The translations under genes were made by a program, and so were the position numbers. The notes beneath the pieces were generated by a model. That model was not told the DNA's origin. It searched no databases and saw only the letters and a list, made by a program, of their open reading frames with translations. Below, piece after piece: positions 26,318 to 50,761 of a stretch of DNA of 64,000 nt. How positions within the stretch are numbered: the stretch's first letter is position 1; every line of letters begins with the position of its first letter. Source of the DNA: an uncultured Dehalococcoidaceae bacterium (GTDB lineage Bacteria > Chloroflexota > Dehalococcoidia > Dehalococcoidales > RBG-16-60-22); NCBI GenBank assembly GCA_964597015.1, contig CAZQWO010000001.1, positions 1,291 through 65,290 on the forward strand, given 5' to 3'.

Positions 26318-26382
26318 CGCTGCCCTGAGCCCATATTAAATCACCGCAAACATAGAGCAGGAGTGCCTCTGGGGAGAGACAG

Positions 26383-27603: not shown

Positions 27604-27617
27604 CCGGGGAATTGATT

Positions 27618-28019
27618 ATGAGATTCTGGCAGAAAATTATGAATATCTATCGGCGGGAGTCAGGCATAACCTTTATGGAAACGGTTATTGCTCTGGCCAT
27701 CCTGGGCACTGTTTCCGTTTGTTTTCTCCACGGCTTAACCACGGCTTCCAAATCCGTTTTCATCACTGATGAGCATTCCACCGCCGAAAGCCTGGCCCAG
27801 AGCCAGATGGCATGGGTGAAAGATGCCAGCTATTCCTACAACGCCACCTCATACTCCGCCGCGCCGATTCCCGGCGGCAAGGATTACCGACAATACTCGG
27901 CCACGGTGTTAGCCGAGCCGCTACATACGCCGGATGATGGCCTCCAGAAAATCACCATAACCATTGAGCGCTCCGGCAAAGGAATATTTAATCTTGCAGG
28001 GTATAAGGTCAACCGATGA
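27618..28019 (+). CDS. prepilin-type minor pilin/pseudopilin
   Basis: ..RRESG/ITFMETVIALAILG is a class III signal with Gly-1 and Glu+5. Start is ambiguous among TTG 27612, ATG 27618 (GGGGA SD) and ATG 27639. Confidence 0.75.
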   Translation: MRFWQKIMNIYRRESGITFMETVIALAILGTVSVCFLHGLTTASKSVFITDEHSTAESLAQSQMAWVKDASYSYNATSYSAAPIPGGKDYRQYSATVLAEPLHTPDDGLQKITITIERSGKGIFNLAGYKVNR

Positions 28020-28546
28020 AACGCGGTGAGAAAGGGTACACACTTATCGAATTAGCCGTAGCTGTCACCATCATGGTGCTGGTGAGCGGTGCCGCCTCCA
28101 TAGCCATAATTCAGATTTTAAAGGGTACGGAGACGAACAATACCCATATGAACGCCGTGCGCCAAGTGCAGAATGCCGGTTACTCGATATGCCGTGATGC
28201 GAGAATGGCACAGAGCATTGATACGGATAATTTGACGGCACCGGATTTCCTGGTCTTCAACTGGACGGAATGGGATAGCGAAGACGAGGAAATATATCAT
28301 TCGGCTACCTATTCTTTTGAAGGCCTGGCCGAAGGTATAGGTAGCCTGAAAAGAGCTCACTGGAGCAGCGCCGGGGCAAATGAACAGACCCTTATCGCAC
28401 AGCATATTTATTACAGTCCGGCGAACCCGGATGACAGCAGTAAAGCTGCCTATCCGGCCCCATTGCTGACCCTGCAACTCACCTCCATCGTTGGGGATGA
28501 AATGGAGATAAGAGAATACCGCATCAAACATCGACCCAATATCTAG
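28016..28546 (+). CDS. prepilin-type minor pilin
   Basis: MKRGEKG/YTLIELAVAVTIMVLV N-terminal methylation motif. ATGA overlap with the upstream gene. Confidence 0.8.
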   Translation: MKRGEKGYTLIELAVAVTIMVLVSGAASIAIIQILKGTETNNTHMNAVRQVQNAGYSICRDARMAQSIDTDNLTAPDFLVFNWTEWDSEDEEIYHSATYSFEGLAEGIGSLKRAHWSSAGANEQTLIAQHIYYSPANPDDSSKAAYPAPLLTLQLTSIVGDEMEIREYRIKHRPNI

Positions 28547-28560
28547 CGGGTGGAAAACCA

Positions 28561-29415
28561 ATGCGTAGAATCTGGCGATTAATAATGAAAGGAGAACTGG
28601 GGCAGGCTTTCCCGATTACGCTGGCCTTCTTAATTATCGGCGGGCTGACCATTCTGCCCAGCCTGAACCTGACTTATTCCAGTGCCAAAACAAGTAACAT
28701 GCTTCAGGACGGCATAAAGGGCACCTATGCGGCCGATGCCGGTATTGAAGATACTCTGTGGGCGCGGGCACACGACGCGGAGCCTTCCAGCCAGCTATCA
28801 GAAAATATCAACGGCATGCCGGTAAATATCCAGACCGTAGACGAAGGCGAATATACCCTTTATCTTGGTGAATTTATTGAACCCGGTGACCACAATGACT
28901 ATCTTGACGTGGCCGGTAATATTACCTGGGATGCCGGAGCCGGTGCTTGCAAATATACCATTACCGTCATCTGGCAGCCGGAATCCGGATTACCGAAAAT
29001 ACATCTGGTGGGAGTTGGCGCCAGGATTCCTCCCGGCTACAGTTATGTGGCGGGGTCGGCGGCTGATTTTACGGAAAACCTGTCCACTGATGAACCGGAT
29101 GAAACCCTGGATTCGCAGGGCGCGTACCTGCTGGACTGGGAACTGGACTCGCCATATCCCTACGTGACCGAGACCGAACCGGTGAAAACACAGATTTTCT
29201 ACATAACCGGAAGCGGAGACCTGGAGGGATATTACGCCTGGGTGGTCGCCAACCGGAATGATATCGGTGCGGTGGGTGAAATCACCGGCACATTCTACGA
29301 AATCACCGCCACCGCCCTTAATCCAGAGAATAACCAGGCCTCGGCAACAATCGTTGCCAAGGCAATGATTGGCGGTGGAAACACGTATATTACATCACGG
29401 CATATCAGCAATTAA
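28561..29415 (+). CDS. PilX-like pilus-associated protein
   Basis: N-terminal hydrophobic segment GQAFPITLAFLIIGGL followed by YAADAGIEDTLW, resembling the PilX N-terminal pattern. No Glu+5. Confidence 0.5.
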   Translation: MRRIWRLIMKGELGQAFPITLAFLIIGGLTILPSLNLTYSSAKTSNMLQDGIKGTYAADAGIEDTLWARAHDAEPSSQLSENINGMPVNIQTVDEGEYTLYLGEFIEPGDHNDYLDVAGNITWDAGAGACKYTITVIWQPESGLPKIHLVGVGARIPPGYSYVAGSAADFTENLSTDEPDETLDSQGAYLLDWELDSPYPYVTETEPVKTQIFYITGSGDLEGYYAWVVANRNDIGAVGEITGTFYEITATALNPENNQASATIVAKAMIGGGNTYITSRHISN

Positions 29416-29436
29416 TGGAAAAACCGGGAAGTAAGA

Positions 29437-29988
29437 ATGAAGATTAGTAAGAAAAGCTGGTTGTCCATCGGCGTCGGCCTGTTCCTCATTGCCTTGGTGG
29501 GCCTGTGGACGGTCTATTCACAACAGTCCGGCGAGAAGAACCAGCTGAAAGAAGAGCTTGCCCAGGCCAAGGCAAGGCTGACCTTGATTCAGATCGAGCA
29601 GCTGGCGAACCAGCAGAGTGAGCTCGAGTGGCAACTCGATGAAACAATGCGGCAGTCTGAATCTGCCCGGGAAACGCTCTCACAGCCGATGAACAGCATA
29701 ATCATCAGCGATATTTTATTCCGCACGGCCGAGGCCAACAGCGTGAATATCACCACGATAAGCTCCTCAGGGGCAAGCCAGATGACCCTGGCTGGCGTTC
29801 CCTGCCAGGCGCTGCCTCTCACCGCCAATATCGAGGGAGAAGTGGCCGACCTGGTTGCTTTCATCACCGAGCTCAATGGCGACCTTGCTACTATTAATTT
29901 AAAGGCAGTGAGCATGGAAATACCCGCTGGAGACAGGAAGCCCACTGCCAGCATTCAGATAGAAGCTTACACGTACGAAGGAAGTTAG
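29437..29988 (+). CDS. PilO-like pilus alignment protein
   Basis: One N-terminal TM helix, a coiled-coil (QLKEELAQAKARLTLIQIEQL), and a C-terminal ferredoxin-like segment ..IEGEVADLVAFITELN.. Confidence 0.6.
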   Translation: MKISKKSWLSIGVGLFLIALVGLWTVYSQQSGEKNQLKEELAQAKARLTLIQIEQLANQQSELEWQLDETMRQSESARETLSQPMNSIIISDILFRTAEANSVNITTISSSGASQMTLAGVPCQALPLTANIEGEVADLVAFITELNGDLATINLKAVSMEIPAGDRKPTASIQIEAYTYEGS

Positions 29989-29991
29989 GCG

Positions 29992-31446
29992 ATGTCAGAT
30001 AGAGTAATCACTTTATATATCGACGATACCAGCATCCGGCTTCTGGTAACCGGCGGCAAACGGATCAAGAAATGGGCGGATGTAGCTCTGGAACCGGGCA
30101 TGGTGAAAAATGCCGTGGTGCTGAAGCAGGAAGAGGTTGCCACTAAAATAAAGCAGCTTTTCAAAGTCCGGAAGATAAACGCGAAGAGAGTTACCCTTGG
30201 CATCAGTGGGCTGCACTGCCTCACCCGGCCGATTCTACTGCCTCAGATGCCAAAAGACATGCTGCAGGAAGCAGTAAGGCGGGAGGCAAACCGGGTACTG
30301 CCGGTTTCTTCCGAGCAGCTTTATCTCCAGTGGCAGTCCATCCCCGCACCGGAGGGAAAACTGCAGGTCTTCCTGGTAGCGATTCCCCGTACTGCCACCG
30401 ATGCCCTGTTCAGTACGCTGCGGCTGGCTGGCCTCAAGCCAGACCTGATGGACCTGAAACCGATGCTCCTGGCCAGAATGGTAAAGGATACCATGGCGGT
30501 TATCGTGGATGTTCAGCCAAACGAATTTGATATCGTTGTCATGGCGGGCGGAATTCCCCAGCCCATCCGCTCCGTCCATTTCCCCGATGAAGCACCATCT
30601 TGGGCGGAAAAGATGACAATGATTAAAGACGATGTCAGCCGGACCATTGAATTCTACAACACCAACAATCCGGAAATGCCACTGGCGACAACGCTGCCTA
30701 TCTGGGTTTCCGGGGAACTGGCCAATGAAGCCGAACAGTGCCAGGTACTCTCCGATGGACTTAAGCGGCCGGTCCTGCCTCTGGCGCCACCGTTTGAGAG
30801 CCCCGATGGACTTGACCCGAATCGTTACACGGCGAATATGGGCCTGGTTCTCAAGAAAACCGCCCCAACAAACGGCACGGGACTTCTGGTAAACGAGCTC
30901 AATGTACTGCCCGCTGCCTACCAGCCCGAGCCCATTTCTCTCACCAGAATCCTGATGGTGCCCGGTGTGGTCGTCGCCATCAGCCTGCTCCTGTTCCTGG
31001 CGCTTATGATTCAAAACACTACCGCTGACACCGCCGAAATGCGGGACCAGTTAAATACTACCAATCAGCTCCTGCAGCAGAAAATGGCCCAGAAGCAAGA
31101 ATATGCCGATGCTATCGCTGAGCTGCAGAAGAAAAATAAAAATGCTGAGACCTCTGGCGGTAATTTTGCCCTCGCCGTGTCTAACCTGAAAACACAGAGC
31201 AAAGCAGTGAACGGCAACCTGGAAATAACCGTTAACAGCCTGCCGGAGACGGTGAGCCTGAGTGGTATCAGCCAAGCTCAGAATTCAATGACCATCAGGG
31301 GACAGGCCCAGAGCGAGGAGCATATCCTGTCATACCTGAGAGGGCTTGAAGCCAGTGAGCGCTTCTCCAGCATTACCATTACCAGTCTCACCAGAACATC
31401 TGGCGGGAATATCGGTTTCAATGCCATTCTTAAGGCGGGAGAATAA
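29992..31446 (+). CDS. PilM-PilN fusion protein, copy 1
   Basis: Actin-like PilM N-terminal ~310 aa, a TM helix (MVPGVVVAISLLLFLALMI), then a coiled-coil/PilN-like C-terminus. Confidence 0.75.
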   Translation: MSDRVITLYIDDTSIRLLVTGGKRIKKWADVALEPGMVKNAVVLKQEEVATKIKQLFKVRKINAKRVTLGISGLHCLTRPILLPQMPKDMLQEAVRREANRVLPVSSEQLYLQWQSIPAPEGKLQVFLVAIPRTATDALFSTLRLAGLKPDLMDLKPMLLARMVKDTMAVIVDVQPNEFDIVVMAGGIPQPIRSVHFPDEAPSWAEKMTMIKDDVSRTIEFYNTNNPEMPLATTLPIWVSGELANEAEQCQVLSDGLKRPVLPLAPPFESPDGLDPNRYTANMGLVLKKTAPTNGTGLLVNELNVLPAAYQPEPISLTRILMVPGVVVAISLLLFLALMIQNTTADTAEMRDQLNTTNQLLQQKMAQKQEYADAIAELQKKNKNAETSGGNFALAVSNLKTQSKAVNGNLEITVNSLPETVSLSGISQAQNSMTIRGQAQSEEHILSYLRGLEASERFSSITITSLTRTSGGNIGFNAILKAGE

Positions 31447-31449
31447 GCT

Positions 31450-32520
31450 ATGGATATTTTTAATCTGGTTCGATCGGCCGCGGAAAAGGGTGCTTCAGAC
31501 CTGCATCTGGTGGCAGATAATGCTCCCATTTTCCGCATCAACGGCCTGCTTCAGCCTGAAGCCGACCTTCCACTCCTGACACCGGATGACATCACTCAGG
31601 CCTTCCAGCAAGTTACCTCGGAAAAAGAAAGGGCTGATTTTCATCGCCGGATGGAGCTTGACTTTGGCCATACACTACCTGATGTTGGCCGAATGCGCTG
31701 CAACGCTGGCAGACAGCGCGGCACCCTTACCCTTACCATCAGGCTCATCCCCCTGGTCATTCCCACTCTGGAAGAACTTGGTTTGCCGGCGATATGCCGG
31801 GACCTCATCATGAAGCCCAGGGGACTGGTGGTGGTCAGCGGACCCAGCGGCAGCGGCAAATCCACCACGCTGGCGGCCATGATTAATTATCTGAACTCCA
31901 CGGAAAACAGGCGCGTGATTACCCTTGAAGACCCGATTGAATATATTTATGCCAACAACCGGTGTACCATCACACAGCGTGAACTGGGCAGTGACACCCT
32001 GTCGTTCGCTGATGCTCTGAAGCATATACTGCGTCAGGACCCGGATATCATTCTGGTGGGCGAGATGAGAGACCCGGAAACAGCCGCGGCCGTGCTTACT
32101 GTGGCCGAGACCGGCCACCTGGTCCTGACCACCGGGCATGCTACCAGCGCCGCGCAGGCGGTGGAAAGAATCATTGACCTTTTCCCCACCCATGAACGGG
32201 ACCTTGCCCAGACCCGGCTGGCTTCCCTGCTCATCGGCATTCTATGCCAGACACTGGTCCCCAAATTGGATGGCGCCGGGAGGGCGGCCGCGATTGAGGT
32301 CATGCTGGCCCTGCCGGCCGTGAAAAACATCATCCGCGAGGGCAGAATTCACCAGCTGCCCAACACCATCGCGACACAGACCCAATCGGGGATGATGCTG
32401 CTGGACCATGCCCTGTTAAACCTTTACCGCAGTGGCATCATCAGCGGCGATAGCCTGTTTTCGGTATGTAACGACCGTGAAGAGGTGGCCAAGCTCATGG
32501 GCAAAGTCGGGGTGGAGTAA
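31450..32520 (+). CDS. pilT: twitching-motility retraction ATPase
   Basis: ASDLHL..PIFRINGLL. Walker A GPSGSGKST. ILVGEMRD. 356 aa, PilT-sized. Confidence 0.9.
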   Translation: MDIFNLVRSAAEKGASDLHLVADNAPIFRINGLLQPEADLPLLTPDDITQAFQQVTSEKERADFHRRMELDFGHTLPDVGRMRCNAGRQRGTLTLTIRLIPLVIPTLEELGLPAICRDLIMKPRGLVVVSGPSGSGKSTTLAAMINYLNSTENRRVITLEDPIEYIYANNRCTITQRELGSDTLSFADALKHILRQDPDIILVGEMRDPETAAAVLTVAETGHLVLTTGHATSAAQAVERIIDLFPTHERDLAQTRLASLLIGILCQTLVPKLDGAGRAAAIEVMLALPAVKNIIREGRIHQLPNTIATQTQSGMMLLDHALLNLYRSGIISGDSLFSVCNDREEVAKLMGKVGVE

Positions 32521-32565
32521 AGTCAACCAAAGGCCTCGCCTCCCCCGGCCACTTCCTCATCACCC

Positions 32566-32601
32566 AGTCCCCTCCTGCTCTCCCGGGAGGGGACTTTTTT
32601 A
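32566..32601 (+). terminator. rho-independent terminator after pilT
   Basis: AGTCCCCTCC-(10-nt loop)-GGAGGGGACT, a perfect 10-bp stem, followed by TTTTTT. Confidence 0.7.
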
Positions 32602-32644
32602 TAAATCTTGACTAATTGAGGAAAAACGCTCAAAATACGGCGAA

Positions 32645-33457
32645 ATGGATGTAATTCTGGCTATTGTCTTGGCCATGTTCGGTGCTGCCGTAGGCAGCTT
32701 CCTGAATGTGTGCATTGACCGCCTGCCCGTGGGCAAGTCAATACTTCGCCCGCCCTCGCACTGTGACTCCTGCCAGCACCCGCTTTCCCCCGCCGACCTG
32801 GTTCCTCTATTCAGCTACCTGTGCCTGCGCCGTCGCTGCCATTACTGCAATGCGCCCATTCCCTGGCGGCCCTTCTGGGTGGAACTGGGCACGGCGCTGC
32901 TCTTCGCCCTGAGCTACTGGTTCTTTGGGCTGAGCGTTCAATTTGCGGTCATTGCTTTTTACGGCAGCTTATTTCTGGTCATCGGCATCATTGACCTGGA
33001 ACACCAGCTGATACTCAACAAAATCTCCTACCCCGCGATGGCGCTGGCGCTGGTTATTTCTATATTCCAGCCTCCACCGGGATTTGCAGATACCTTTTCT
33101 TTACCATGGCCTTTATATGGAATCATTAACGGCATCACGGGTGCTGCTATAGGATTGGTGTATATTCTGATTGTCTATTATATATACCTTTGGCTTCGTA
33201 AACGTGAGGGGTTTGGAATTGGAGATTTTAAACTGGTAATACTGATGGGCCTGGTAACGGGTTCAGGAATGATAATAGTAGCCATAACCCTGGGTGCGCT
33301 CATTGGTAGTGCCGCTGGCATTATTCTGCTTCTGATGAAGAAAAAGAAGTGGCTGGGCTGTCTTCCCTTCGGCACTTTTCTGGCCATCGCCACCATGCTC
33401 ACCCTCATCTGGGGAAATGACATCCTCGGCTGGTATCTGGGACTGCTGCATTTATAG
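32645..33457 (+). CDS. pilD: prepilin peptidase (A24 family)
   Basis: N-terminal GSFLNVCIDRLP, Zn-type cysteines CDSC..CHYC, polytopic membrane body. Confidence 0.88.
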   Translation: MDVILAIVLAMFGAAVGSFLNVCIDRLPVGKSILRPPSHCDSCQHPLSPADLVPLFSYLCLRRRCHYCNAPIPWRPFWVELGTALLFALSYWFFGLSVQFAVIAFYGSLFLVIGIIDLEHQLILNKISYPAMALALVISIFQPPPGFADTFSLPWPLYGIINGITGAAIGLVYILIVYYIYLWLRKREGFGIGDFKLVILMGLVTGSGMIIVAITLGALIGSAAGIILLLMKKKKWLGCLPFGTFLAIATMLTLIWGNDILGWYLGLLHL

Positions 33458-39283: not shown

Positions 39284-39967
39284 GTGCTGACAATGAACAA
39301 AATACAGGTAATTATCGTTAGCCAGCAGGTGCTTTTCCGGCAGGGAATAGAACACTCTCTTTCCAGAACAAAGGATATTCAGATTTCGGCCACGGCTGAT
39401 GTTTCAGATGAGGTGCTGTCGATAATCGATAACCTGCCACCTGATGTCGCCCTGCTGGATATTGACACTCCGTCTGACAACGGGCTGAAGCTGGCGCGCC
39501 GAATAAAACAGCGCCTGCCGACAATCGGCGTGGTGGTGCTTACCTCCGGCCTGGATGACGCCCAGCTGTTCCAGGCACTCAAAGCTCAGGCGGTTGCCTA
39601 TTTAAGCAAGGAGGTCACCGCCAGTGAGCTGGTCAATACCATAAGGCGCGTTTCCCGGGGTGAGCACCCCATAAATGAAAGCCTGACTGCCCGACCCAAG
39701 CTGGCCGAACAGGTGCTAAGGCAGTTTCAGGAACTGTCGCTGCGCAGCGAAGCGGAGCAGTTCATCGCCCCGCTTACTCCGAGAGAGATGGAAATCCTGA
39801 AATACATTGCTCAGGGCTATCTGAACAAGCAGATTGCCGCCGAGCTGGACATCAGCGAACAGACAATTAAAAACCATGTTACCTCCATTTTGCGCAAGCT
39901 GAATGCTAACGCCCGTACGGAAGCGGTCGTCGTCGCCATCAAGCAGGGTTTGATTTCCCTCACCTAA
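39284..39967 (+). CDS. NarL/LuxR-type response regulator with an atypical receiver domain
   Basis: C-terminal LuxR HTH (LTPREMEILKYIAQGYLNKQIA). The receiver keeps Asp (LLDIDTP), Thr (VLTS) and Lys (YLSKE), but the N-terminal acidic pair is VSQQ instead of DD. The start may be ATG 39293. Confidence 0.8.
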   Translation: MLTMNKIQVIIVSQQVLFRQGIEHSLSRTKDIQISATADVSDEVLSIIDNLPPDVALLDIDTPSDNGLKLARRIKQRLPTIGVVVLTSGLDDAQLFQALKAQAVAYLSKEVTASELVNTIRRVSRGEHPINESLTARPKLAEQVLRQFQELSLRSEAEQFIAPLTPREMEILKYIAQGYLNKQIAAELDISEQTIKNHVTSILRKLNANARTEAVVVAIKQGLISLT

Positions 39968-40030
39968 TGAGCAGCTTCTACCGCAAAGGTATCTGTCATC
40001 TTCCTGTAACTTAATTCTTTATGTCTAGTC

Positions 40031-40059
40031 TTGACATCGGGCGCGCCGCGAATTACCAT
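40031..40059 (+). promoter_or_regulatory. putative promoter of the kinase-regulator pair
   Basis: TTGACA, 17-nt spacer, TACCAT. Confidence 0.35.
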
Positions 40060-40092
40060 TGAAACGGATAAAGGTGCAGCAAAAGGTGTAAA

Positions 40093-41262
40093 ATGCGTTA
40101 CCGCTACGAAAAAGAGGCGTACCAGTTTCTCGCCGTTTACCGCTTCCTGGGGTTTGCGCTGGCGGTGCTCTTCTCACAGGTTACGCCGGTAATGAGCGCA
40201 TTACCTCAGGTTCAGCTCATCACCATTTTCAGCACGCTTGGTATCTATACCATCCTGAAGGTTTTCTCACCCCTGCGCTGGCAGGCGAGGGGCACCATGA
40301 CCTACCTGATACTGAGCGGCGATTTTCTCCTCTGCATCCTGCTCGTCATCTACACAAATGGCCTGAACAGTAGCTTCCTGCTTTATTCCCTGACTCCCAT
40401 CATGACCGCAGCCCTGCTCTTTGAAGAAAAACTTGCCCTTGGTCTCGCTTCCACCGCATCCATTGTCCTTTCGCTCACGCACGTATTCCTTGCCCAGTTC
40501 ACATCACGATTTGCCTGGATTATGCAGGGGTATAACCTCACCCTCCTCATCGTCTATACGCTCTTCTCCCTGGTTGTGGCCACGGTGCCATACCGCATAA
40601 ACCTGAATATACGGCGCCGCATCGAAAGGGATGCCATAATTGAAGAGCGGCGCCGTATTGCCAGAGAGATACATGACGGTGTTGCTCAGTCATTAAGCTA
40701 TCTCAACCTGAAGACAAAGTCGGTAAGTGACCTGCTTACGTCAAAAGATACCGTGCAGGCAATTGCCGAGCTAACTGAAATCCGCGATGTGGTGCAGGAT
40801 ACCTACGAGGATATCCGGGAGTCAATCGACCAGTTAAGCACCGAAATAAAAAGCGTCTCCATTCTGGCCGCTCTGGGCAGCTATGTCCGGGAGTTCAGCA
40901 GCAACAATGGTATTCCGGTAAAGTTTGAGATTGCCAAGCCCTTTGCCCGGCTTTCCCCGGTTGCGGAACTGCAATTGCTGCGCATCGGCCAGGAAGCGCT
41001 GACCAATGTCCGGCGTCACGCGATGGCCAGCAGCGTTAAGGTAACGCTGAGAAACACCGCGGACGCGGTGGAAATGATAGTCAAAGACGATGGCCAGGGT
41101 TTTGACCTTAAAGTACTGGAGGAATACCCGCCCGGCTATCACGGTTTGGCCATCATCAAGGAGCGGGCCGAGGGGCTTGGTGGCAAAGTCTGGATTGAGA
41201 CTACTCCCGGCCAGGGTACAGAAGTAAAGGTCCATCTACCGGTGGAGAAAGTGAGGATGTGA
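40093..41262 (+). CDS. sensor histidine kinase (HisKA_3/NarX-DegS type) with polytopic membrane N-terminus
   Basis: H-box IAREIHDGVAQSL. HATPase region with GYHGLAIIKERAEGLGG. Five predicted TM helices. Confidence 0.85.
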   Translation: MRYRYEKEAYQFLAVYRFLGFALAVLFSQVTPVMSALPQVQLITIFSTLGIYTILKVFSPLRWQARGTMTYLILSGDFLLCILLVIYTNGLNSSFLLYSLTPIMTAALLFEEKLALGLASTASIVLSLTHVFLAQFTSRFAWIMQGYNLTLLIVYTLFSLVVATVPYRINLNIRRRIERDAIIEERRRIAREIHDGVAQSLSYLNLKTKSVSDLLTSKDTVQAIAELTEIRDVVQDTYEDIRESIDQLSTEIKSVSILAALGSYVREFSSNNGIPVKFEIAKPFARLSPVAELQLLRIGQEALTNVRRHAMASSVKVTLRNTADAVEMIVKDDGQGFDLKVLEEYPPGYHGLAIIKERAEGLGGKVWIETTPGQGTEVKVHLPVEKVRM

Positions 41263-41263
41263 A

Positions 41264-41935
41264 ATGGAACCAGTAAAGGTACTGGTCGTAGATGACCACG
41301 CCCTTTTTCGTCGTGGCATTGTCGCCGTTCTGACAAATCAGGAGAATATACGTGTGGTGGGGGAGGCGACCAATGGGCTTGAGGCAATCGAAAAAGCGGC
41401 AGAACTGGTGCCTGATGTTATCGTGATGGACCTGAATATGCCGCAGTGCAGCGGGCTGGAAGCAACGCAGGCGCTCCAGGCCAAGATGCCTCATCTGAAT
41501 ATCCTGGTTTTAACGGTCTCCGATAATGAGGCTGACCTTTTCAGTGCCATCAAGTTCGGGGCTACCGGTTATATCCTGAAGAACACGGAGCCGGAGGAAC
41601 TCGTCCAGGCTATTTATCACATCGCTCACGGTGGCGTTATTATTTCCCCCGTTATGGCCATAAAACTGCTTGCCGAATTCAGAGATTCGACTACCGGTGC
41701 CCCGGCCAGGGTGACCGCCGATGAAGAGGCCAAGCTGAGTCCCCGGGAGGATGAAGTGCTGCGGCTGGTGTCCCAGGGCGCCACCAACAAGGAAATAGCT
41801 GACTCCCTGTTCATCTCGGAGAACACCGTGAAAACGCACCTGCGCAACATAATGGACAAGCTCCACCTGGCAAACCGCAGCCAGGCGGCCGCTTACGCCG
41901 TGAAACGAGGCCTTGTGCCCGACAGCCAGAAATAG
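41264..41935 (+). CDS. NarL/LuxR-type response regulator (canonical receiver)
   Basis: VLVVDDHALFR, VIVMDLNMP, LVLTVS, GYILKN, and a LuxR HTH. Starts 1 nt after the kinase stop. Confidence 0.88.
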   Translation: MEPVKVLVVDDHALFRRGIVAVLTNQENIRVVGEATNGLEAIEKAAELVPDVIVMDLNMPQCSGLEATQALQAKMPHLNILVLTVSDNEADLFSAIKFGATGYILKNTEPEELVQAIYHIAHGGVIISPVMAIKLLAEFRDSTTGAPARVTADEEAKLSPREDEVLRLVSQGATNKEIADSLFISENTVKTHLRNIMDKLHLANRSQAAAYAVKRGLVPDSQK

Positions 41936-42109: not shown

Positions 42110-42583
42110 ATGAGGTTACCAAAGAGAGGCGAGAAGGGGTTCACACTGATTGAGTTGCTCATCGTGGTCGCCATCCTGGGCGTGCTGGCGGCGGTGGTCA
42201 TCCCCAATGTGGGCCGGTTCATCGGCCGCGGTGAAACGGAGGCGGCGCAAACGGAGTTTGCCAACGTCCAGGCAGCGACGGTCGCCATGATGACCGACAA
42301 CGAGGTAAGTGTGCTGAGAAATGCCCGCGACGGCGCTGCCAACGCCACCAGAAACATGAGCATCTTTCCCGATGACAGCGCAGTCGGCGACAAGTACCCG
42401 GACGCCAATGGAGTCAACTTCTCAGCCGGTGACGGCATCGGCTTCGTGCTCTACCAGCACGATATAGACGCTGACGCCGCCAACACCAGCCTGGTCAACT
42501 ACGTTGCCACGCAGTACACCAAGGGCACCTACTATGTTAATGCGCAAGGCACGGTAACGCAGCACACCACCGGGTATGAGTAA
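42110..42583 (+). CDS. type IV major pilin, paralog 1 (no cysteine)
   Basis: MRLPKRGEKG/FTLIELLIVVAILGVLAAVVIP is a canonical prepilin leader with Glu+5. SD AAGGAGGTG. Confidence 0.9.
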   Translation: MRLPKRGEKGFTLIELLIVVAILGVLAAVVIPNVGRFIGRGETEAAQTEFANVQAATVAMMTDNEVSVLRNARDGAANATRNMSIFPDDSAVGDKYPDANGVNFSAGDGIGFVLYQHDIDADAANTSLVNYVATQYTKGTYYVNAQGTVTQHTTGYE

Positions 42584-42623: not shown

Positions 42624-43097
42624 ATGAGGTTACCGAAAAGAGGCGAGAAGGGGTTCACGCTGATTGAGCTGCTCATCGTGGTCGCCATCTTGGGCGTACT
42701 GGCGGCGGTGGTCATCCCCAATGTGGGGCGGTTCATCGGCCGCGGCGAATCGGAGGCGGCGGATACCGAGCTGAGCAACGTCCAGTCTGCGGTGGTCGCC
42801 ATGATGGTTGACAACCAGATATCCACACTAAGAAATGCCAAGGACGGCGCTGCCAACGCCACCAGAAATATGTGCATCTTTCCCGATGACAGCGCAGTCG
42901 GCGACAAGTACCCGGACGCCAATGGTGATAACTTCTCAGCTGGTGACGGCATCGGCTTCGTGCTCTACCAGCACGATATGAATGCTGACGCCGCCAACAC
43001 CAGCCTGGTCAACTATGTCGCCACGCAGTACACCAAGGGCACCTATACGTGTGACGCGTCAGGCACGGTGACCCAGCGTGAGACGGGGTATGATTAA
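42624..43097 (+). CDS. type IV major pilin, paralog 2 (two cysteines)
   Basis: First 42 residues identical to paralog 1. C-terminal ..NMCIFPDD.. and ..TYTCDASG... Confidence 0.9.
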   Translation: MRLPKRGEKGFTLIELLIVVAILGVLAAVVIPNVGRFIGRGESEAADTELSNVQSAVVAMMVDNQISTLRNAKDGAANATRNMCIFPDDSAVGDKYPDANGDNFSAGDGIGFVLYQHDMNADAANTSLVNYVATQYTKGTYTCDASGTVTQRETGYD

Positions 43098-43295: not shown

Positions 43296-44837
43296 CTACC
43301 CGCTGGTTTGAGTCGTCAGCTGGATAGAACCACCGGAGGTATACGGGTAACCTTCCGGAGGGGGTATGGGCGTGGCAAAGCGTCCGCTTTCCTCAAGTGC
43401 CGTAAGATAGTATCGAAAAGACAGGTAATCACCCGCCATACAGTTAATACTTATATCGTTACCCTTGTGTGATAATGTACTCACCTCGACGCCCAGTTTT
43501 TCCGCCTCCTGTACAATTACCCTGATATCATCGTTGAAACTCTTGTCCCTGACAATAATGGAACTATATTCACTGATGGCCTGCTGCAGAGGTTCACGCC
43601 GCTCTATTTCCGCTTTCTTCCTTAACAACTGGGCATTGAGGGCAACATCTTTCATTGCCATAACTGACGTCTTCCTCATTTCCTCGCCCGTAAGCTGCCA
43701 TAATGGAAAGACAAGGGCAATGGCGGCTATGATAGTAACGACTGAGTAGACCTGCTTTAAGGTTGGCCGCCAGGGCATATAAGTCTGGGGAAGCAGATTC
43801 ATATCGAGCGTTACGGCTCCAGCATCACCATTGCCATTGACATCTCGCATTGCCATTTCCTTACGCATGGCAAGCCCGATATTCGCCGCATACTGGGATA
43901 TCGGCAGGAACTCGGGACAATCCAGCGGTGGTGCCAGTGGCTCTATATTAAATTCAAGCCCGCCCAGCAGCTTCTCCATCAGTTCCGGATTAACAGACAT
44001 CTGCCCGGTGATGTAGAGTGGAGTGGCCATATCAAACGGCGTAGCAACATGACCGGCGTTATAATGTTCAACTATCATACCAAGTTGTGCCGCCAGATAC
44101 TCGGCGGCATCTTCAATGCTCATATTATCCGGCCGCCACGCCAGTGAATGCATGACTTCAGGCACACCTTTAACCAAAATGACAATGTCGAAGTTTGTGG
44201 GTTCAATATTCAGAATCAGAGCCTCCTTTTTACCGACGGCCCTGGCCAGTGCCATCGTCTTGAGCTCAATGCTCTGGGTAGTGATACCGGCCGCCTTCAA
44301 GGCAAGCACTATGTCATCAATAATCTCTCTGGGCACACCGACTGTGAATACATGGCTATCCTTCTCATCAGCGCTCAGTGTCTGCCAGAAAAAGTAGAGG
44401 ATTTCCTTGGGAACAGGCATTATATCCCGGGCAATCTCATCGACCGACTCCGCAAGGGTTGGTGCTGGTGGCAGGCTGGGCGTGGGTATGAGACGGCTTA
44501 TTGTGTAGAGACCACTTATGCTGATATTTACCTTGCTGGCTTTGATACCGCTTGAATTCATTAGCCGCTTGACGAAGACACCCAGGTCGGGCTCGACTCT
44601 GTCACCTATTTGCTCTGCTTCTTCCGATTCAAACGGGGCATCAGCCCATCTTTTAACCACCCCGCCACTCGTCTCCATGATGCTTACGCCGGTTGTGCTG
44701 ATATCAAGAGTAACAACCTTCCCAGAAACAAACCGCGCCAGCACTCTCTCCATTGTTTTCAGGAGCTTCTTAATCGCGGTGCTTAAGTCAAGAGCCAGCA
44801 CACCTTGAGATTTAACTTCGCTTTTCTGTTCCGCCAA
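43296..44837 (-). CDS. PilM-PilN fusion protein, copy 2
   Basis: Same architecture as 29992-31446: an actin-like N-terminal part, a TM helix (VYSVVTIIAAIALVFPLW), and a PilN-like end ..YLTALEESGRFA... TTG start behind GAGGTGG. Confidence 0.7.
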   Translation of the reverse strand: MAEQKSEVKSQGVLALDLSTAIKKLLKTMERVLARFVSGKVVTLDISTTGVSIMETSGGVVKRWADAPFESEEAEQIGDRVEPDLGVFVKRLMNSSGIKASKVNISISGLYTISRLIPTPSLPPAPTLAESVDEIARDIMPVPKEILYFFWQTLSADEKDSHVFTVGVPREIIDDIVLALKAAGITTQSIELKTMALARAVGKKEALILNIEPTNFDIVILVKGVPEVMHSLAWRPDNMSIEDAAEYLAAQLGMIVEHYNAGHVATPFDMATPLYITGQMSVNPELMEKLLGGLEFNIEPLAPPLDCPEFLPISQYAANIGLAMRKEMAMRDVNGNGDAGAVTLDMNLLPQTYMPWRPTLKQVYSVVTIIAAIALVFPLWQLTGEEMRKTSVMAMKDVALNAQLLRKKAEIERREPLQQAISEYSSIIVRDKSFNDDIRVIVQEAEKLGVEVSTLSHKGNDISINCMAGDYLSFRYYLTALEESGRFATPIPPPEGYPYTSGGSIQLTTQTSG

Positions 44838-44873: not shown

Positions 44874-45824
44874 TTACCCTTGGGGCGGTTTAGAATACAA
44901 TTCAATAGCTAACTTAGCCACAGTGTCATAGACAGTCTCTTCACTGCCAAAGAATTCCTCTGCTGTTTCCACATCCGACCCATCAAACTGCCGGACAGTG
45001 CCATCGGCCTCGCAGGTGTAATAATATTCAGTAACCGGTATGTCAATATAACTCATCTTCTGATAACTAGATGTATTGTCCGCTGTAATCCGGTCATGCT
45101 CATACAGCAAATAACCAGCTGACGGTGTTCCTTCTCCGGTATACCCCTTTTCCCCAGCGGTGGTGATAGCATCGGGAAAAGCTGTCATATCGTTAATCGC
45201 AATTCCGTCTTCAAAATATGTCGGGTTAGGAATCTCATCAAGGCCGTTGTCCGCCATCATATCGGACACGGCCTGTATTACAGCGCTGAATTCAGCTCTT
45301 CGCATCGCTTCCTCTTCCTCTAATTGCACTTGTACCCAATTGAGCTCCACTTTTTTAAGAATCATGGTTTCCAACGTTTTGCCGGCATCAAGGTCGGCTA
45401 TGAAAGCCATAATGGTATCAAAGTCAGCCTGTACCCTGATATCACCAAAGGATAGAACGTGATAGGTGCGCTCACCCATTTTTTTGGCTGAGGGTTTGCC
45501 GGGGGCAGAAATATGAAACTTGCCGCTTTCTGGAGTAACATCGATGCCGTTTTCCCTGGCGATATCAACGATTTTCGCCAGGGCATCAGGCGTTTCTATT
45601 GGCTCCAGAGCTTCGTTTACCTTATCATATTTGTCCTGCAATTCCTCCATACTAGGTAAAGGCTTGTTCACCACCACCAGGGTTTTATTTATCTTTTCAT
45701 TAAGTTCCTTCTGTTGTGGTCCCTGCTGGATGTAAACAAAGCCAAGTCCAATGTATATAATGACGCAGACACCCACTACGACGAGAAATCCTACGCGGCG
45801 TATTCTGGTCAATATTTCCTGCAT
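44874..45824 (-). CDS. PilO-like membrane protein with a C-terminal pilin-head-like extension
   Basis: N-terminal TM helix, coiled-coil, and a ..VQADFDTIMAFIADLDAG.. segment parallel the set-1 PilO-like protein. The last ~110 aa contain GYLLYEHD..ADNTSS..YYYTCEADGTVRQ, colinear with pilin paralog 2 GFVLYQHD..ADAANTS..GTYTCDASGTVTQ. Confidence 0.6.
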   Translation of the reverse strand: MQEILTRIRRVGFLVVVGVCVIIYIGLGFVYIQQGPQQKELNEKINKTLVVVNKPLPSMEELQDKYDKVNEALEPIETPDALAKIVDIARENGIDVTPESGKFHISAPGKPSAKKMGERTYHVLSFGDIRVQADFDTIMAFIADLDAGKTLETMILKKVELNWVQVQLEEEEAMRRAEFSAVIQAVSDMMADNGLDEIPNPTYFEDGIAINDMTAFPDAITTAGEKGYTGEGTPSAGYLLYEHDRITADNTSSYQKMSYIDIPVTEYYYTCEADGTVRQFDGSDVETAEEFFGSEETVYDTVAKLAIELYSKPPQG

Positions 45825-45898: not shown

Positions 45899-46294
45899 TT
45901 ACTTCCACCGCTCGCGCAGTGCCCGCTGTACCGTCTCCTCAATCGTTTCTTCTAAGGTCTTGGTTACTTTCTTATCTCTCTTGTCTTTCTCTTCCGCTTC
46001 TTTTGCTTCCCTCTGCAACCTGACGAGCTCATCATCGTAGAAAGTCCAGTATAGCTGTCGTCCACGCCTCCAACCTACTATCCAGACCATTACCAGGCCA
46101 AAGATGGCAACCGGCGCCACAATCCCAATGTTGATATCCTGAAAGAGCAGGATGATAACGATGATTAATACGACAAAGAGAAATACCGCCACATCAAGGT
46201 CCCACCTGGCAACCCTGGCCCTCTCTTTCGCCCGGCGAGCCGCTTCCCGTCTTATTTCTTCTCTTACTGGCCAGGGTGTGCTCTCTTGGCTCAA
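45899..46294 (-). CDS. hypothetical two-helix membrane protein with charged termini
   Basis: 131 aa. Two hydrophobic helices flanked by Arg/Glu/Lys-rich segments. TTG start behind AAGGAGGGG. Confidence 0.55.
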   Translation of the reverse strand: MSQESTPWPVREEIRREAARRAKERARVARWDLDVAVFLFVVLIIVIILLFQDINIGIVAPVAIFGLVMVWIVGWRRGRQLYWTFYDDELVRLQREAKEAEEKDKRDKKVTKTLEETIEETVQRALRERWK

Positions 46295-46521: not shown

Positions 46522-47772
46522 TTATCCGAAGGCACCAGTAAGCGTATACATAGGCATAACAACGGAGAGAGCAATGAATCCAACCATAAGGGCGATGCCG
46601 ATAGTGCTGACAGGGCCTATCATGCCCACCATGGCAGATATCTTCTCTTCCGCCGTCGTTTCAAAGAAATCCGCCACCACCCCCATGGTGAAATCAAGGG
46701 TATTGCTTTCCTCTCCCACGGCAACCATCTGCACCAGTAAAGGCGGAAACACGCTTATTCGGGACATCGGTCCCGCTAATCCCTCACCGAGAAGCAACCG
46801 TTCGTTCACCCTGTTCAGGGCGTCACGGAAGACCATATTGGTGGTCGACTGTGGCAGTATCTCCATTGTTTCCTGCAGTTTAATTCCAGCACTGACCATC
46901 ACTGACAGCGTTCTGGCGAAGCGTCCCAGTTCTGACATGAGTGCCGGGGGGCCGATAATCGGCATGCTTATGCGCAGACGGTCAAGTATCCGTTTCCCGG
47001 ACGGCCTTTTCATCATCCAGAGCGCGACGGCAAATAATACCGCGCCGCCAACGACAAGATGCAGCGGATAATTCTGCACAAACTCGGTCAGCGCAATGAG
47101 TATTCTGGTGGGTAAAGGTAATTCAACACTCATCGCGGTGAACATATCGAGCATCTTGGGCATGACAAAGGTAATCATCAGAATGACCACAGCGACGCCA
47201 ACGCCCATGACTATCATTGGGTAACTCAACGCTTTTTTAACCCTCTGGGTCATCGCCGAGTGCCGCTCCAAGTAATCAGCCATCTGGTTGAGTACTGAGT
47301 CCAGATTGCCTGTTTCCTCACCAACAGCAATGGTACGGCAGTAAATTTCACTAAAGGCTTTCGGGTGCTTCTTTACTGCCTGTGAGAAAGAACCTCCGGA
47401 ACGGATGTCATTTAATACGCTGGATAAAATGCTTTTGAAAGCGCGGCTGCTGGCCACCTGTCCCTGCAGTATTTCCAGCGCTGGCAGCAGTGAAATGCCG
47501 GAGCGCAGCAAAGTGGCCATCTGGCGGGAAAAAACGACGATATCACGGGACTTTAGCGTGAAGAGCGAAGGCAAAGCCTCCTCCAGGCTGAACATGGACG
47601 GGGCAACTTCAACATGCTCCGGAATATATCCCTTGGCGATTAGCTGTCGCTCGGCAGCAATCTCACTGGTTGCCTTAATATTGCCCTTTACCAGATTGCC
47701 TTCTCTGGTGGTCGCTATATAGCGGTAGTTAATTTCTTTCAGTTTTCCGGGCGCTTCAATCGTTCCCGCCAT
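46522..47772 (-). CDS. pilC: type IV pilus platform protein (GspF/PilC family), copy 2
   Basis: 416 aa with duplicated T2SSF domains. Confidence 0.9.
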   Translation of the reverse strand: MAGTIEAPGKLKEINYRYIATTREGNLVKGNIKATSEIAAERQLIAKGYIPEHVEVAPSMFSLEEALPSLFTLKSRDIVVFSRQMATLLRSGISLLPALEILQGQVASSRAFKSILSSVLNDIRSGGSFSQAVKKHPKAFSEIYCRTIAVGEETGNLDSVLNQMADYLERHSAMTQRVKKALSYPMIVMGVGVAVVILMITFVMPKMLDMFTAMSVELPLPTRILIALTEFVQNYPLHLVVGGAVLFAVALWMMKRPSGKRILDRLRISMPIIGPPALMSELGRFARTLSVMVSAGIKLQETMEILPQSTTNMVFRDALNRVNERLLLGEGLAGPMSRISVFPPLLVQMVAVGEESNTLDFTMGVVADFFETTAEEKISAMVGMIGPVSTIGIALMVGFIALSVVMPMYTLTGAFG

Positions 47773-47781
47773 TGCTTCCCC

Positions 47782-49485
47782 TTAAGTGATTGAGAATACG
47801 TTACGCAGGATCTCATATGGAGTGGTAACTCCCTCTTTAACCTTCATCATCCCGTCATGCCACAGAGAGATCATGCCTTCCTTGTTGGCTTCCTGGCGCA
47901 TTTCATCGGAATCGGTACCTTTGATAATTATGCGGCGGATGGCCTCAGTGACTACTAGAACTTCAAAGATGCCGGTTCGCCCCAGATAGCCTGTACCGGC
48001 GCAGAAATTACAACCGGCACCAATAATAAATTCAGAGCGTTTTTCTCCCATTTCTTCTTCATAAGCTTCCCGCTCGTCAGGGGCTATCTCAGTGGGGTGA
48101 GAACAGTACGGGCAGACACGCCGTACCATTCTCTGGGCAATAACGCCAATCAACGCCGAAGAAATGAGGAATGGCTCAATACCCAGGTCAACCATTCGGA
48201 TAATGGTGCTCACGGTATCATTGGCGTGGACTGAAGACAACACCAGATGGCCGGTAAGGGCCGCCTGCGTGGAAATCTGCGCCGTTTCCGCGTCACGTAT
48301 CTCACCGACCAGTATCACGTCAGGGTCAAGCCGCATTGTGGCTCTCAGTCCGGTGGCGAAGGTAACAGCGGCTGACGGATTGACCTGCATCTGATTGATA
48401 TTGGCAAAATGATATTCCACCGGGTCTTCAATGGTGATAATCTTGCGTCCAACCGAGTCCAGCGTGTTTACCGAGGCATACTGGGTAGTCGTTTTACCGG
48501 AACCGGTGGGACCGCTGATCAGTATCATGCCAAAAGGCGTCTTCAGCATCATCATGTATTTTCCCAGTGATTCCGGCAGGAATCCGATTTCCGGCAATGG
48601 CATGAAGGCGAAAGCCTTGTCCAGGATTCTCATCACCGCCATCTCACCGTATATCGTGTTGGAAGTAGCCACACGGATATCCACCTCACGGTCACCCATA
48701 TCAAAGGTAATCTGACCGTCCTGAGGTCGACGGCGCTCGGCGATGTTCAACGCCGCCATGATTTTCACGCGGGAAAGTAGCGGCGCATGCACGCTTAACG
48801 GCAGGGCCATCACCTCGTTCAGGATACCGTCAATCCGGTAGCGAACGCGCAACCTGTCTTCTTGAGGTTCAACATGTACATCGGAGGCACGGTCCCGTAC
48901 CGCCTGTTTTATCAGCAGGTCAATAGCACGCACCACCGGGGCCTGGGCGATTATTTCCGGTGAAACCCGTGCTTCTCTCATCCCGGCGGCGCCACGGTAC
49001 CGGGTGGGAATCTGACTCAGCTGTTCTTCAAGTTCACCACCGATGCGGTAGTTCAGGTCTATCATTTCCTGAATGTCCTGAGCCGTACTGATAACCGGCT
49101 CAATTCTTCTCATGGTTATTGCCGCCAGGTCTTCAATCGCCTCTATATCCTTGGGGTCTTCCATGGCAATCACGATGGCCCCGTCTTTCAAGGCCACCGG
49201 GATGATGCCGTATTTCCTGGCCACTGATTCCGGGATTAATTTCACCGCATCGGTCTTTACACCTTCTCTTCTCAGGTTGATGAACGGTATTCCCAGCTGC
49301 AGACTGATAAAGAATGCCAGTTGCTGCTGCGTAACCATACGTTGCTGAACCAAAATATGCTCTAGCCGGTCACCCGTCTTCTGCTGCAGCTCATGGGCAC
49401 GCTGTACCTGCTCATCGTTTATAATTCCGGCCTCAACCAGAATATTCAGGACATTTCTCTTCACGCTTTTTGCCGGCGCTTCCAT
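47782..49485 (-). CDS. pilB: type IV pilus assembly ATPase (GspE/PilB family), copy 2
   Basis: Walker A GPTGSGKTTTQ. Tetracysteine CPYC..CNFC. N-terminal T2SSE_N domain. Confidence 0.9.
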   Translation of the reverse strand: MEAPAKSVKRNVLNILVEAGIINDEQVQRAHELQQKTGDRLEHILVQQRMVTQQQLAFFISLQLGIPFINLRREGVKTDAVKLIPESVARKYGIIPVALKDGAIVIAMEDPKDIEAIEDLAAITMRRIEPVISTAQDIQEMIDLNYRIGGELEEQLSQIPTRYRGAAGMREARVSPEIIAQAPVVRAIDLLIKQAVRDRASDVHVEPQEDRLRVRYRIDGILNEVMALPLSVHAPLLSRVKIMAALNIAERRRPQDGQITFDMGDREVDIRVATSNTIYGEMAVMRILDKAFAFMPLPEIGFLPESLGKYMMMLKTPFGMILISGPTGSGKTTTQYASVNTLDSVGRKIITIEDPVEYHFANINQMQVNPSAAVTFATGLRATMRLDPDVILVGEIRDAETAQISTQAALTGHLVLSSVHANDTVSTIIRMVDLGIEPFLISSALIGVIAQRMVRRVCPYCSHPTEIAPDEREAYEEEMGEKRSEFIIGAGCNFCAGTGYLGRTGIFEVLVVTEAIRRIIIKGTDSDEMRQEANKEGMISLWHDGMMKVKEGVTTPYEILRNVFSIT

Positions 49486-49564: not shown

Positions 49565-50470
49565 CTATTGACTCCTCGGTGAAATGGTTATTCGGCGCAC
49601 CCCTCTTCTTTCCGGCACGTTATCCTTTCCTTCCGGTCGCTCCGGTGAAATGTTAGCCTCGGGCAATTTGGCAACGAGCCCGGCAAGCAAGGGAGCAGGC
49701 TTATCCAGCACTATGGTTATGATGCTTCCCTTATTCCAGGAACCTGCGGTACGGACAAATTTTAGTTCAGGTGTGGTCTGCAGGTAGCTATACAATTTGG
49801 CCACCATTGTTGGCTCAATCGGCACTTCAACGTTTAACTCAACCTCGCCAGTATACAGTGACTCGCTTTCCTCCTTGGTTAAAACCACCGCTGGCGCTTC
49901 TTTCGCCACTGCCCTCCGTTCTTTGCCAGTCTTTTTGGGCTCTATTACTTCCGCTGCTGGCTCAACAACAGCCGACACCTCAGGCAGCGGCACCGCTTCT
50001 TCGGCCACCGGTTCTTCAACCTGACTCTCAAGCGGCTCCGGTTTTTCCTCCTCCGCAACCACTTCTTCTGGAGCCGGGACTGGCTCTGCCATTTTCTCCT
50101 CAGCGACCGGCTCGGCTATGGAAGCAATATCTTCTGCGGTCTCTTTCTGCACTGGCCTCTTTTGGCTTTTTACCTTCTCCGCTTCCTTTTTAGCCTCCGC
50201 AATAATCTTGTCTGCTTCCTGCCGGGCCTCTGCCGCCACCTGCGTTTTTACGCTGTCAACAATCTGCTCGGCACTGCTGATTGCCGCCTTGAGTATAGAG
50301 CGGACCGAAGACGAAGAAGAAGTGTCGCGCTGCTCCACGAGACCGTTCACCTGGTCAAACAGCTGTTCCGCATTTCCCTTATCTTCAGCAATCTCTCCCC
50401 CGCTGCTTTCCGCCTGCGGTTTGCTTTCCGTTCCCTTTGCTTCACGTTTCCGTCCGAGCAACCTGAACAT
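49565..50470 (-). CDS. hypothetical Glu/Ala/Pro-rich protein leading pilus gene set 2
   Basis: ATG 50470 lies 10 nt after GGAGGA; the track start at 50479 is TTG. An N-terminal helical AEARQEADKIIAEAKKEAEKV segment, an acidic proline-rich linker, and a ~100-aa C-terminal globular segment. Confidence 0.55.
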   Translation of the reverse strand: MFRLLGRKREAKGTESKPQAESSGGEIAEDKGNAEQLFDQVNGLVEQRDTSSSSSVRSILKAAISSAEQIVDSVKTQVAAEARQEADKIIAEAKKEAEKVKSQKRPVQKETAEDIASIAEPVAEEKMAEPVPAPEEVVAEEEKPEPLESQVEEPVAEEAVPLPEVSAVVEPAAEVIEPKKTGKERRAVAKEAPAVVLTKEESESLYTGEVELNVEVPIEPTMVAKLYSYLQTTPELKFVRTAGSWNKGSIITIVLDKPAPLLAGLVAKLPEANISPERPEGKDNVPERRGVRRITISPRSQ

Positions 50471-50761
50471 GCCGTACAATTCCTCCGCTCTTCCCCAGGC
50501 CGTTTTCAGTTCGATTTACCATAAATAATATTAGTTTGATGAGTGTCAAATGTCAAGTAAACCAAGTGTAGGTCGTCGGCCCGTAATTGTCAATGTAACC
50601 ATCAGTTAAGATAACGGTGCCACATGCCTGTGAAGCTGATATCCATAATAAAATCCAGGTACCGGCAAGCCAGATTCCGCTTCCTATTTGAAAAGATGGT
50701 GTTTTTGCGTTATAAATATAAGAGCATTCTACACAAATGAATAATTAAGAAGGATTTAAAC

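Follow-up and report, generated by a model that had tools for sequence, protein, structure and literature searches.

Type IV pilus machines contain a ring of PilN and PilO, which lies on the outer side of the cytoplasmic membrane and encircles the base of the pilus. In single-membrane (monoderm) bacteria, there is no secretin for these proteins to “align” with, and PilO is larger, having a second part that awaits explanation (PMC6916266). Classical PilO (P. aeruginosa; PDB entries 2rjz and 5uvr) and GspM/EpsM (1uv7) have a single N-terminal membrane anchor, a helical stalk and a small extramembrane α/β domain with a short turn in its last hairpin, and the classical pilO gene adjoins pilM and pilN. 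The PilMNOP proteins bind pilins, and GspM/PulM bind pseudopilins. A generic type IV pilin is laid out as a long helix followed by a small β-sheet. Here, we describe an open reading frame (ORF) for a probably PilO-like protein in a 64,000-nucleotide stretch of DNA (hereafter the window) from an uncultured Dehalococcoidaceae bacterium (contig CAZQWO010000001.1, positions 1,291 to 65,290). The window carries two type IV pilus gene sets, and the target ORF belongs to set 2, on the minus strand; the coordinates of all features are given in Table 1. We are highly confident that the target is a PilO-position subunit with a pilin-head-related domain of ~130 residues inserted in the loop of its last β-hairpin, where classical PilO and GspM, like the plain paralog in set 1, have a short turn. 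It is likewise very probable that the inserted domain is homologous to what is soluble in the type IV pilins of this lineage, with the β-strands and the outer half of the long helix but not the hydrophobic helix of the membrane and fibre core.

Judged by sequence comparison, the inserted module is a true homolog of the globular head of type IV pilins. BLASTP aligned ORF residues 178–279 with residues 49–151 of pilin paralog 2 (E = 1e-10, 35% identity) and ORF residues 170–279 with pilin paralog 1 (E = 8e-8). The match starts in helix α1-C, where EFSAVIQAVSDMMADN is aligned with ELSNVQSAVVAMMVDN, and covers nearly the entire globular part of the pilin. The resemblance is thus longer than the ~45 residues quoted in the original prediction, which had been made from the sequence of the window and had compared the C-terminus of the ORF with that of pilin paralog 2. 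“SAG”, one of the shared elements listed there, was paired neither by BLASTP nor in the profile alignment, and its occurrence in both proteins seems to be a coincidence. The module and the pilins of the same lineage share the motifs MM.DN, FPD, GY.LY.HD, NY and Y.T...GTV.Q in addition to the globular part as a whole. There is no significant similarity between the target and the pilin genes at the nucleotide level (best blastn E = 0.38), as had been predicted.

The pairwise identities between the module and the pilins are modest (32–35%), and this is all that speaks for a chance or compositional resemblance, or for two ORFs having been joined by a gene-calling error or a frameshift. Against these explanations, a profile–profile comparison with hhalign of 134 modules from 120 family members with the heads of pilin homologs gave a probability of 99.7% and E = 6.7e-26 over 105 columns, in line with the claimed head homology. 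When a hidden Markov model (HMM) of the module was run on the window, only three copies were found, in the target and in the heads (residues 39–156) of both pilin paralogs, so the module is not a common low-complexity pattern. Modelled alone with AlphaFold2 (AF2), using 33 other modules aligned with 29 pilin heads, the module gave a confident structure, with a mean predicted local distance difference test (pLDDT) score of 91.6 and a predicted template-modelling score of 0.85. The model consists of a 27-residue helix (module residues 2–28) followed by strands at residues 46–48, 79–83, 86–93, 100–107 and 113–116. In an earlier AF2 model of the full protein, made from 32 sequences, module residues 199–260 (ORF numbering) had pLDDT values below 50. 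Together with the mostly full-length homologs and the conserved last strand described below, the profile–profile comparison and the confident module model exclude a chance resemblance, and there is next to no prospect that the gene is an artefact of joined ORFs.

The original prediction had placed the pilin-like part as a C-terminal extension of the protein. While its homology to the pilin head held up, this placement did not. In the full-protein AF2 model, the module lies between β-strands 154–166 and 298–311, both with pLDDT ~80–87, and the family alignment shows a terminal segment that has been kept after the module (…ETVAxLxVDLYTKP; YDTVAKLAIELYSKP in the target). In the 19 of the 120 listed homologs that have a tandem duplication of the module (421–462 aa), this terminal segment follows the second copy. 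Since the conserved last strand comes after the module, the module is an insertion. Furthermore, when residues 167–297 were excised, the remaining core of 186 residues could be aligned end to end with the 183-aa set-1 PilO-like protein, with TVAKLAIELYSKP opposite TASIQIEAYTYEG and the excision point opposite the set-1 short turn, PAGDRKP. Thus, the module is nested within the last β-hairpin of the PilO-like domain. At its N-terminal border, where pilin …IPNVGRFIGRG/ESEAADTEL… corresponds to …NWVQVQL/EEEEAMRRAEF… in the target, the module begins just past the hydrophobic helix of the pilin; this border matches that of the N-terminally truncated, soluble pilin constructs used by structural biologists. 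We also considered that the longer homologs (440–462 aa) might be fusions with the upstream 131-aa gene, and rejected this because they share the N-terminus of the other family members and carry a second module.

The carrier of the module resembles PilO in several respects. Its N-terminal ~160 residues match the set-1 PilO-like ORF (E = 2e-6, 24% identity), which upholds the predicted parallel between the two proteins, and this paralogy combines with gene position to place the protein in the PilO slot: the target gene is directly upstream of that for a PilM–PilN fusion and downstream of pilB and pilC, in a type IV pilus gene cluster. Because the basic sequence RIRR precedes the anchor, the N-terminus should lie inside and the remainder of the protein outside. 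The secondary structure in the AF2 model is compatible with a bitopic, N-in protein with a stalk and a ferredoxin-like α/β layout, and the core has pLDDT ~76–88. The top match of the full model in a Foldseek search of the PDB was PilO (2rjz; probability 0.84–0.89, template-modelling score 0.42–0.46), with EpsM/GspM (1uv7) and the PilO core (5uvr) further down. The target is therefore PilO-like in position, in topology and probably in fold, rather than a demonstrated member of the PilO family.

No significant family was found when the full protein, the core and the module were scanned against Pfam and NCBIfam, only weak matches to Amuc_1100 and DUF7361, and no Pfam model covers the module. Amuc_1100 (NF038287) resembles the target in that it, too, is a protein of ~317 aa found beside a PilM-like protein, Amuc_1101 (NF045709), in a pilus-like cluster. 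The N-terminal region of the target matched Amuc_1100 with E = 0.01–0.02 and the PilM–PilN fusion matched Amuc_1101 with E = 6.7e-6; these scores are far under the curated cut-offs (15 vs 180 bits) and are confined to the anchor and stalk, and we treat the similarity as a lead, not as membership.

The pilins of the same lineage have a class III signal peptide, a hydrophobic α1-N and Glu5. The module has none of the three and is consequently not processed or polymerised like a pilin; without α1-N, polymerisation of the pilin type is impossible. The N-terminus of the target itself is not that of a prepilin either. There is no N_methyl match in the target, compared to ~1e-9 for both neighbouring pilins, the Gly before FLVVV is not kept in the homologs, which have A, I or T instead, and position +5 is hydrophobic. 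The view that the protein is unlikely to be a processed pilin is thus borne out. Conversely, the module has features not found in the lineage pilins, namely an extra conserved tail, FDG.D...A.EY, and an invariant unpaired cysteine.

These properties set the target apart from the systems that it resembles most. In modular pilins such as PilB and PilC of S. sanguinis, a pilin-type module and another domain are likewise combined in one polypeptide (PMC6916266, PMC10191384), but in these proteins it is a polymerisable pilin that has received a functional domain, whereas in the target the arrangement is reversed, with a non-polymerisable pilin head grafted into a machine component. The target has an ordinary anchor at its N-terminus, and its pilin-related part is internal and lacks α1-N, so it does not qualify as a modular pilin. 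S. sanguinis PilO (formerly PilH) likewise comes from a single-membrane host and is much larger than PilN, and its extra part has been proposed to act beyond subunit polymerisation (PMC6916266). As far as can be compared from the description in that review, however, the extra part of S. sanguinis PilO is C-terminal to the PilO-like region and is not called pilin-like, while that of the target is a nested insertion homologous to a pilin head. Neither a PilO with a pilin-head domain nor the module family was found to be described in text searches of the literature, and no such fusion had been known to the author of the original prediction; many subscription papers lie outside the coverage of these searches, and absence from them is not proof.

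The design is shared by many relatives. The target was matched at E ≤ 0.001 by 298 clusters (90% identity), of which the 120 listed are mostly full length, with 46–100% identity, and are called “hypothetical” wherever they are named. Homologs with a named source organism are from Dehalococcoidia, Dehalococcoidales or Chloroflexi/Chloroflexota. In a scan of one genome per species, the full protein was found in a conserved operon in 38 Dehalococcoidales/Chloroflexota genomes. The gene adjoined the pilM–pilN fusion in all 38 loci, and was always located between pilC (or minor pilin genes) and the fusion. There is little doubt that the insertion is ancient and under purifying selection, with two tandem copies in some relatives. 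The predicted old paralogy is in agreement with the lack of DNA similarity, with the lack of concerted evolution (see below) and with the retention of the design throughout the family. We also asked if loci with more modules have correspondingly more pilin genes, and rejected this: the two-module locus L001 has two pilin genes, as does the window, where the PilO-like protein has one module.

The conservation bears on whether the module is just a passive spacer, i.e., a stable secreted fold that was recruited solely to make the PilN/PilO ring larger or higher and that has no specific partner. Such a role would fit with the tolerance of either one or two tandem copies, and many of the residues shared with pilins are in possibly structural motifs (FPD, HD, Y..Y.T..G.V.Q). 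However, the mean pairwise identity is 66.7% for the module head and 64.4% for the module helix, compared to 57.4% for the PilO-like core, indicating at the sequence level that the constraint on the module is no weaker than that on its carrier. In addition, the family has invariant stretches of its own that go beyond the conservation in pilins (KGYTG, YYYTCEADGTVRQFDG and Cys271), suggesting a specific surface. We therefore consider a passive spacer to be improbable. Cys271 (nucleotides 45012–45014) is invariant in 97 of 97 single-module family members, and there is no second cysteine to pair with it, either elsewhere in the extracytoplasmic part or at the position of the partner in pilin paralog 2; an intermolecular disulfide or a metal contact is possible. 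A second, nearly invariant cysteine, Cys20, is in the membrane anchor. Of the two window pilins, only paralog 2 has a cysteine pair (MCIFPD … YTCDASG), and both cysteines are found in 3 of 120 pilin homologs.

The module is extracytoplasmic, carried by a PilO-position protein and under selection. The best explanation overall, which we put forward tentatively and at somewhat less than even confidence, is that of a PilO-position protein with an inserted pilin head that acts as a collar or dock. In a ring of the PilN/PilO type, the inserted heads would form a collar of pilin-like surfaces next to the point where the subunits exit from the membrane and enter the fibre. By making head-to-head contacts of the kind that neighbouring subunits make, this collar could provide a docking site for arriving pilins or stabilise the fibre at its base. 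Of the roles raised in the original prediction, chaperoning or gating of pilins, like docking, may also apply. Such a job may matter in a cell that has no outer-membrane secretin, and whose cultured relatives lack a peptidoglycan wall. A collar is the most economical role for the module because PilN and PilO encircle the pilus base and reportedly contact pilins; that the inserted heads do in fact make up a pilin-contacting collar or dock at the base of the pilus is possible, but far from assured.

Several results count against this interpretation. In a Foldseek search of the PDB, the module model resembled no solved pilin (best E = 2), and an HMM search of PDB sequences with the module profile found nothing; the assignment of a pilin fold to the module is consequently based on sequence homology and the layout of secondary structure. 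For the carrier, the fold matches to PilO were not significant (E = 0.19–3.7), and neither the full protein nor the core without the module gave a PilO, GspM or T2SSM match in Pfam/NCBIfam (PF04350/IPR007445), which is why we use the label “PilO-like” only. HMM searches with the family and core profiles also gave no sequence relatives in the PDB. When 147 copies of the domain were placed in a neighbour-joining tree, the modules inserted in PilO-like proteins fell together, interleaved with a pilin subfamily (P0258, P0265, P0290 and P0311), so that the nearest pilin relatives of the module belong to another subfamily and the window pilins are distant. (By eye, the pilin at locus L041, …EDEARRTE…YYYTCEADGTIRQW, which was not included in the tree, looks like the P0258/P0265/P0290 subfamily.) Finally, no concerted evolution or co-adaptation between module and cognate pilin was detected in 15 genomes, in which same-genome pairs scored 54.0 bits and cross-genome pairs 55.5 bits (permutation p = 0.95). 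Same-genome pairs being no closer than cross-genome pairs is what ancient paralogs should show if there is neither gene conversion nor co-adaptation; the insertion is therefore old, and the module does not track its cognate pilin.

The distribution of the module outside pilins and PilO-like proteins is a further point against a role specific to the pilus. The module profile was searched against a database of 1.84 billion cluster representatives, in which each match represents a cluster at 50% identity, and found 214 proteins at E ≤ 0.001. Among the best 150 of these 214, 21 are true pilins with an N_methyl motif and ~15–25 belong to the PilO-like family; the remainder are lipoproteins and proteins that are secreted or anchored in the membrane, in which the module is present once, twice, or three or more times. 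Its partner domains include DUF6612, CARDB, PD40, LRR, TPR and a Ser/Thr kinase. The few module-bearing proteins with a named organism are from Chloroflexota. At locus L039 (3336–4565, plus strand), a 409-aa predicted DUF6612 lipoprotein (E = 1.3e-11) has a C-terminal module that is 57% identical to target residues 170–291, and its neighbours are leucine-biosynthesis, cysteine-synthase and RtcB-like genes, with no pilus genes. Two proteins, at L040 (7926–8768, plus strand) and P0358, combine the module with an N-terminal TIR domain (TIR_2 E = 3.5e-13 and 2.8e-12, respectively), and no signal peptide or membrane segment was evident on reading the L040 sequence. The domain is thus promiscuous, present on non-pilus lipoproteins, a kinase and apparently cytoplasmic TIR proteins, and its role need not be specific to pilins. 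That the module mimics the cognate pilin, as had been suggested, is weakened both by this distribution on proteins unrelated to pili and by its being no closer to the pilins of its own operon.

This distribution suggests another role, that of a portable envelope or protein-interaction adaptor of the Chloroflexota, which would bind a common surface-layer or envelope component or copies of itself, and which, in the PilO-like protein, would not touch pilins but tether the pilus machine to the envelope in a way similar to PilP/PilQ or to wall anchoring in other bacteria. The many architectures among the 214 cluster representatives, the location of the L039 lipoprotein away from pilus genes and the lack of co-variation with cognate pilins are all as expected for such an adaptor, and the extra part of the monoderm PilO has been speculated to anchor the machine (PMC6916266). 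On the other hand, a ligand restricted to the envelope is a misfit for TIR proteins without a signal peptide or membrane segment, and since true pilins carry the same domain, pilus-related binding is the simplest common factor. On balance, we consider the adaptor role rather unlikely, though it is the main rival of the collar. Pilus-related binding could also apply to all carriers: the module may be a portable domain for recognition of pilins or pili that uses the head-to-head contacts of the fibre, with the PilO ring being a collar made of pseudo-subunits on tethers, by which the base of the fibre would be guided or held in a cell that has no secretin. We regard this more general proposal as a long shot. 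If it were true, the module on lipoproteins, kinase and TIR proteins would couple other activities to pilins or to pilin binders, and the TIR case could include the sensing of phage proteins that target the pilus. Abortive-infection defence proteins usually pair a TIR domain with a C-terminal sensor, and by analogy, the module in the TIR proteins might serve as a pilin-head bait for pilus-binding phage proteins, an idea that we note as a lead. A separate observation concerns locus L042, where a 144-aa protein (3587–4021, plus strand) consists of an ordinary membrane anchor, without a GFTLIE motif, and the module; by its sequence it looks like a “pilin” that prepilin peptidase could not process. 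Its gene is just upstream of those for a 591-aa homolog of the 304-aa set-2 protein of the window and for pilB.

The gene content of the operons bears on one more role. The original prediction had suggested that the module could prime the fibre; as a built-in initiator, it would then take the place of the minor pilins. The set-2 operon in the window indeed has no minor-pilin genes. In 9 of the 38 related loci, however, all three minor-pilin genes are present after pilC and immediately before the 131-aa gene and the target homolog, an order that resembles the one around the set-1 PilO-like gene. The window genome, moreover, has minor pilins in set 1, and a membrane-tethered head would be unable to travel with the tip of the fibre. 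Priming in place of minor pilins is thus very unlikely, and the collar or dock at the pilus base remains our preferred reading. (The loci grouped with the occurrence of minor pilins in the set-2 operon are L009, L015, L016, L024–L026, L028, L037 and L038.)

Table 1. Location of the target ORF, its parts and the neighbouring genes, in window coordinates
Feature	Position	Strand	Length	Basis or remarks
Target ORF, PilO-position protein with nested pilin-head-like domain	44874..45824	minus	316 aa	
Single N-terminal transmembrane anchor	45726..45794	minus	~residues 11–33	Read from sequence
Helical stalk, possibly coiled coil	45597..45725	minus	~residues 34–76	AF2 helices 35–51 and 59–72; aligns with set-1 PilO-like protein
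PilO-like globular core, first part (helix, strands, helix, strand)	45327..45596	minus	residues 77–166	AF2 pLDDT ~76–88; set-1 alignment
Inserted pilin-head-like module: 27-residue helix (equivalent to pilin α1-C), then β-strands	44934..45326	minus	residues 167–297	Homology; AF2; HMM envelope 168–295
Last β-strand of PilO-like core	44892..44933	minus	residues 298–311	AF2 strand, pLDDT ~87; aligns with TASIQIEAYTYEG of set-1 protein when module is removed
Pilin paralog 1, type IV pilin	42110..42583	plus	157 aa	N_methyl; head homologous to module
Pilin paralog 2, type IV pilin	42624..43097	plus	157 aa	N_methyl; head homologous to module
PilM–PilN fusion, immediately downstream of target; presumed partner of PilO-like protein	43296..44837	minus	513 aa	Weak PilM and GspL matches; adjacency
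Membrane protein with two hydrophobic stretches, directly upstream of target	45899..46294	minus	131 aa	Conserved gene position
PilC platform protein	46522..47772	minus		Target operon
PilB extension ATPase	47782..49485	minus		Target operon
Coiled-coil/acidic protein, set 2	49565..50479	minus	304 aa	
Set-1 plain PilO-like paralog, no module, uninterrupted hairpin (…INLKAVSMEIPAGDRKPTASIQIEAYTYEGS)	29437..29988	plus	183 aa	
Response regulator, histidine kinase and response regulator, beside pilin genes	39284..41935	plus		

Set 1 (24779..33457) has the gene order PilB, PilC, three minor pilins, PilO-like protein, PilM–N fusion, PilT and prepilin peptidase. Both pilin genes are on the plus strand, convergent with set 2; they are 87% identical at the DNA level and are recent tandem duplicates. 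In the window genome, the minor pilins, PilT, PilD and the plain PilO-like protein are thus in set 1, and the major pilins and the module-bearing PilO-like protein in set 2. It may be that the sets work together, or that each encodes a machine of its own. In five related genomes, a PilD homolog was found beyond the two-component genes. Response regulator and histidine kinase genes flank the pilins in most of the related loci that reach that far, which suggests two-component control dedicated to pilin expression.

The 131-aa membrane protein has charged ends and no significant family match. Its gene is upstream of the target in every related operon and absent from set 1, and the protein may act specifically as a partner for the PilO-like protein with the module. 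The 304-aa protein is kept upstream of pilB in most related operons in which this region is present. It comprises a coiled coil with weak similarity to the ATP-synthase b and V-ATPase E stalks, which is joined by an acidic linker rich in Pro and Glu to a C-terminal domain that is conserved, and its relatives are from ~220 to 611 aa long.

The practical value of these findings is modest, as the organisms are uncultured Dehalococcoidales and the role of the module is inferred only. They define an unannotated domain family, comprising at least 214 protein clusters (50% identity), in which the soluble part of a pilin has been reused away from pilins. What PilN and PilO do is a question for the type IV pilus field, particularly as regards bacteria with a single membrane, and a PilO variant with a pilin head leads to a testable hypothesis: that the PilN/PilO ring directly contacts the heads of the pilins.

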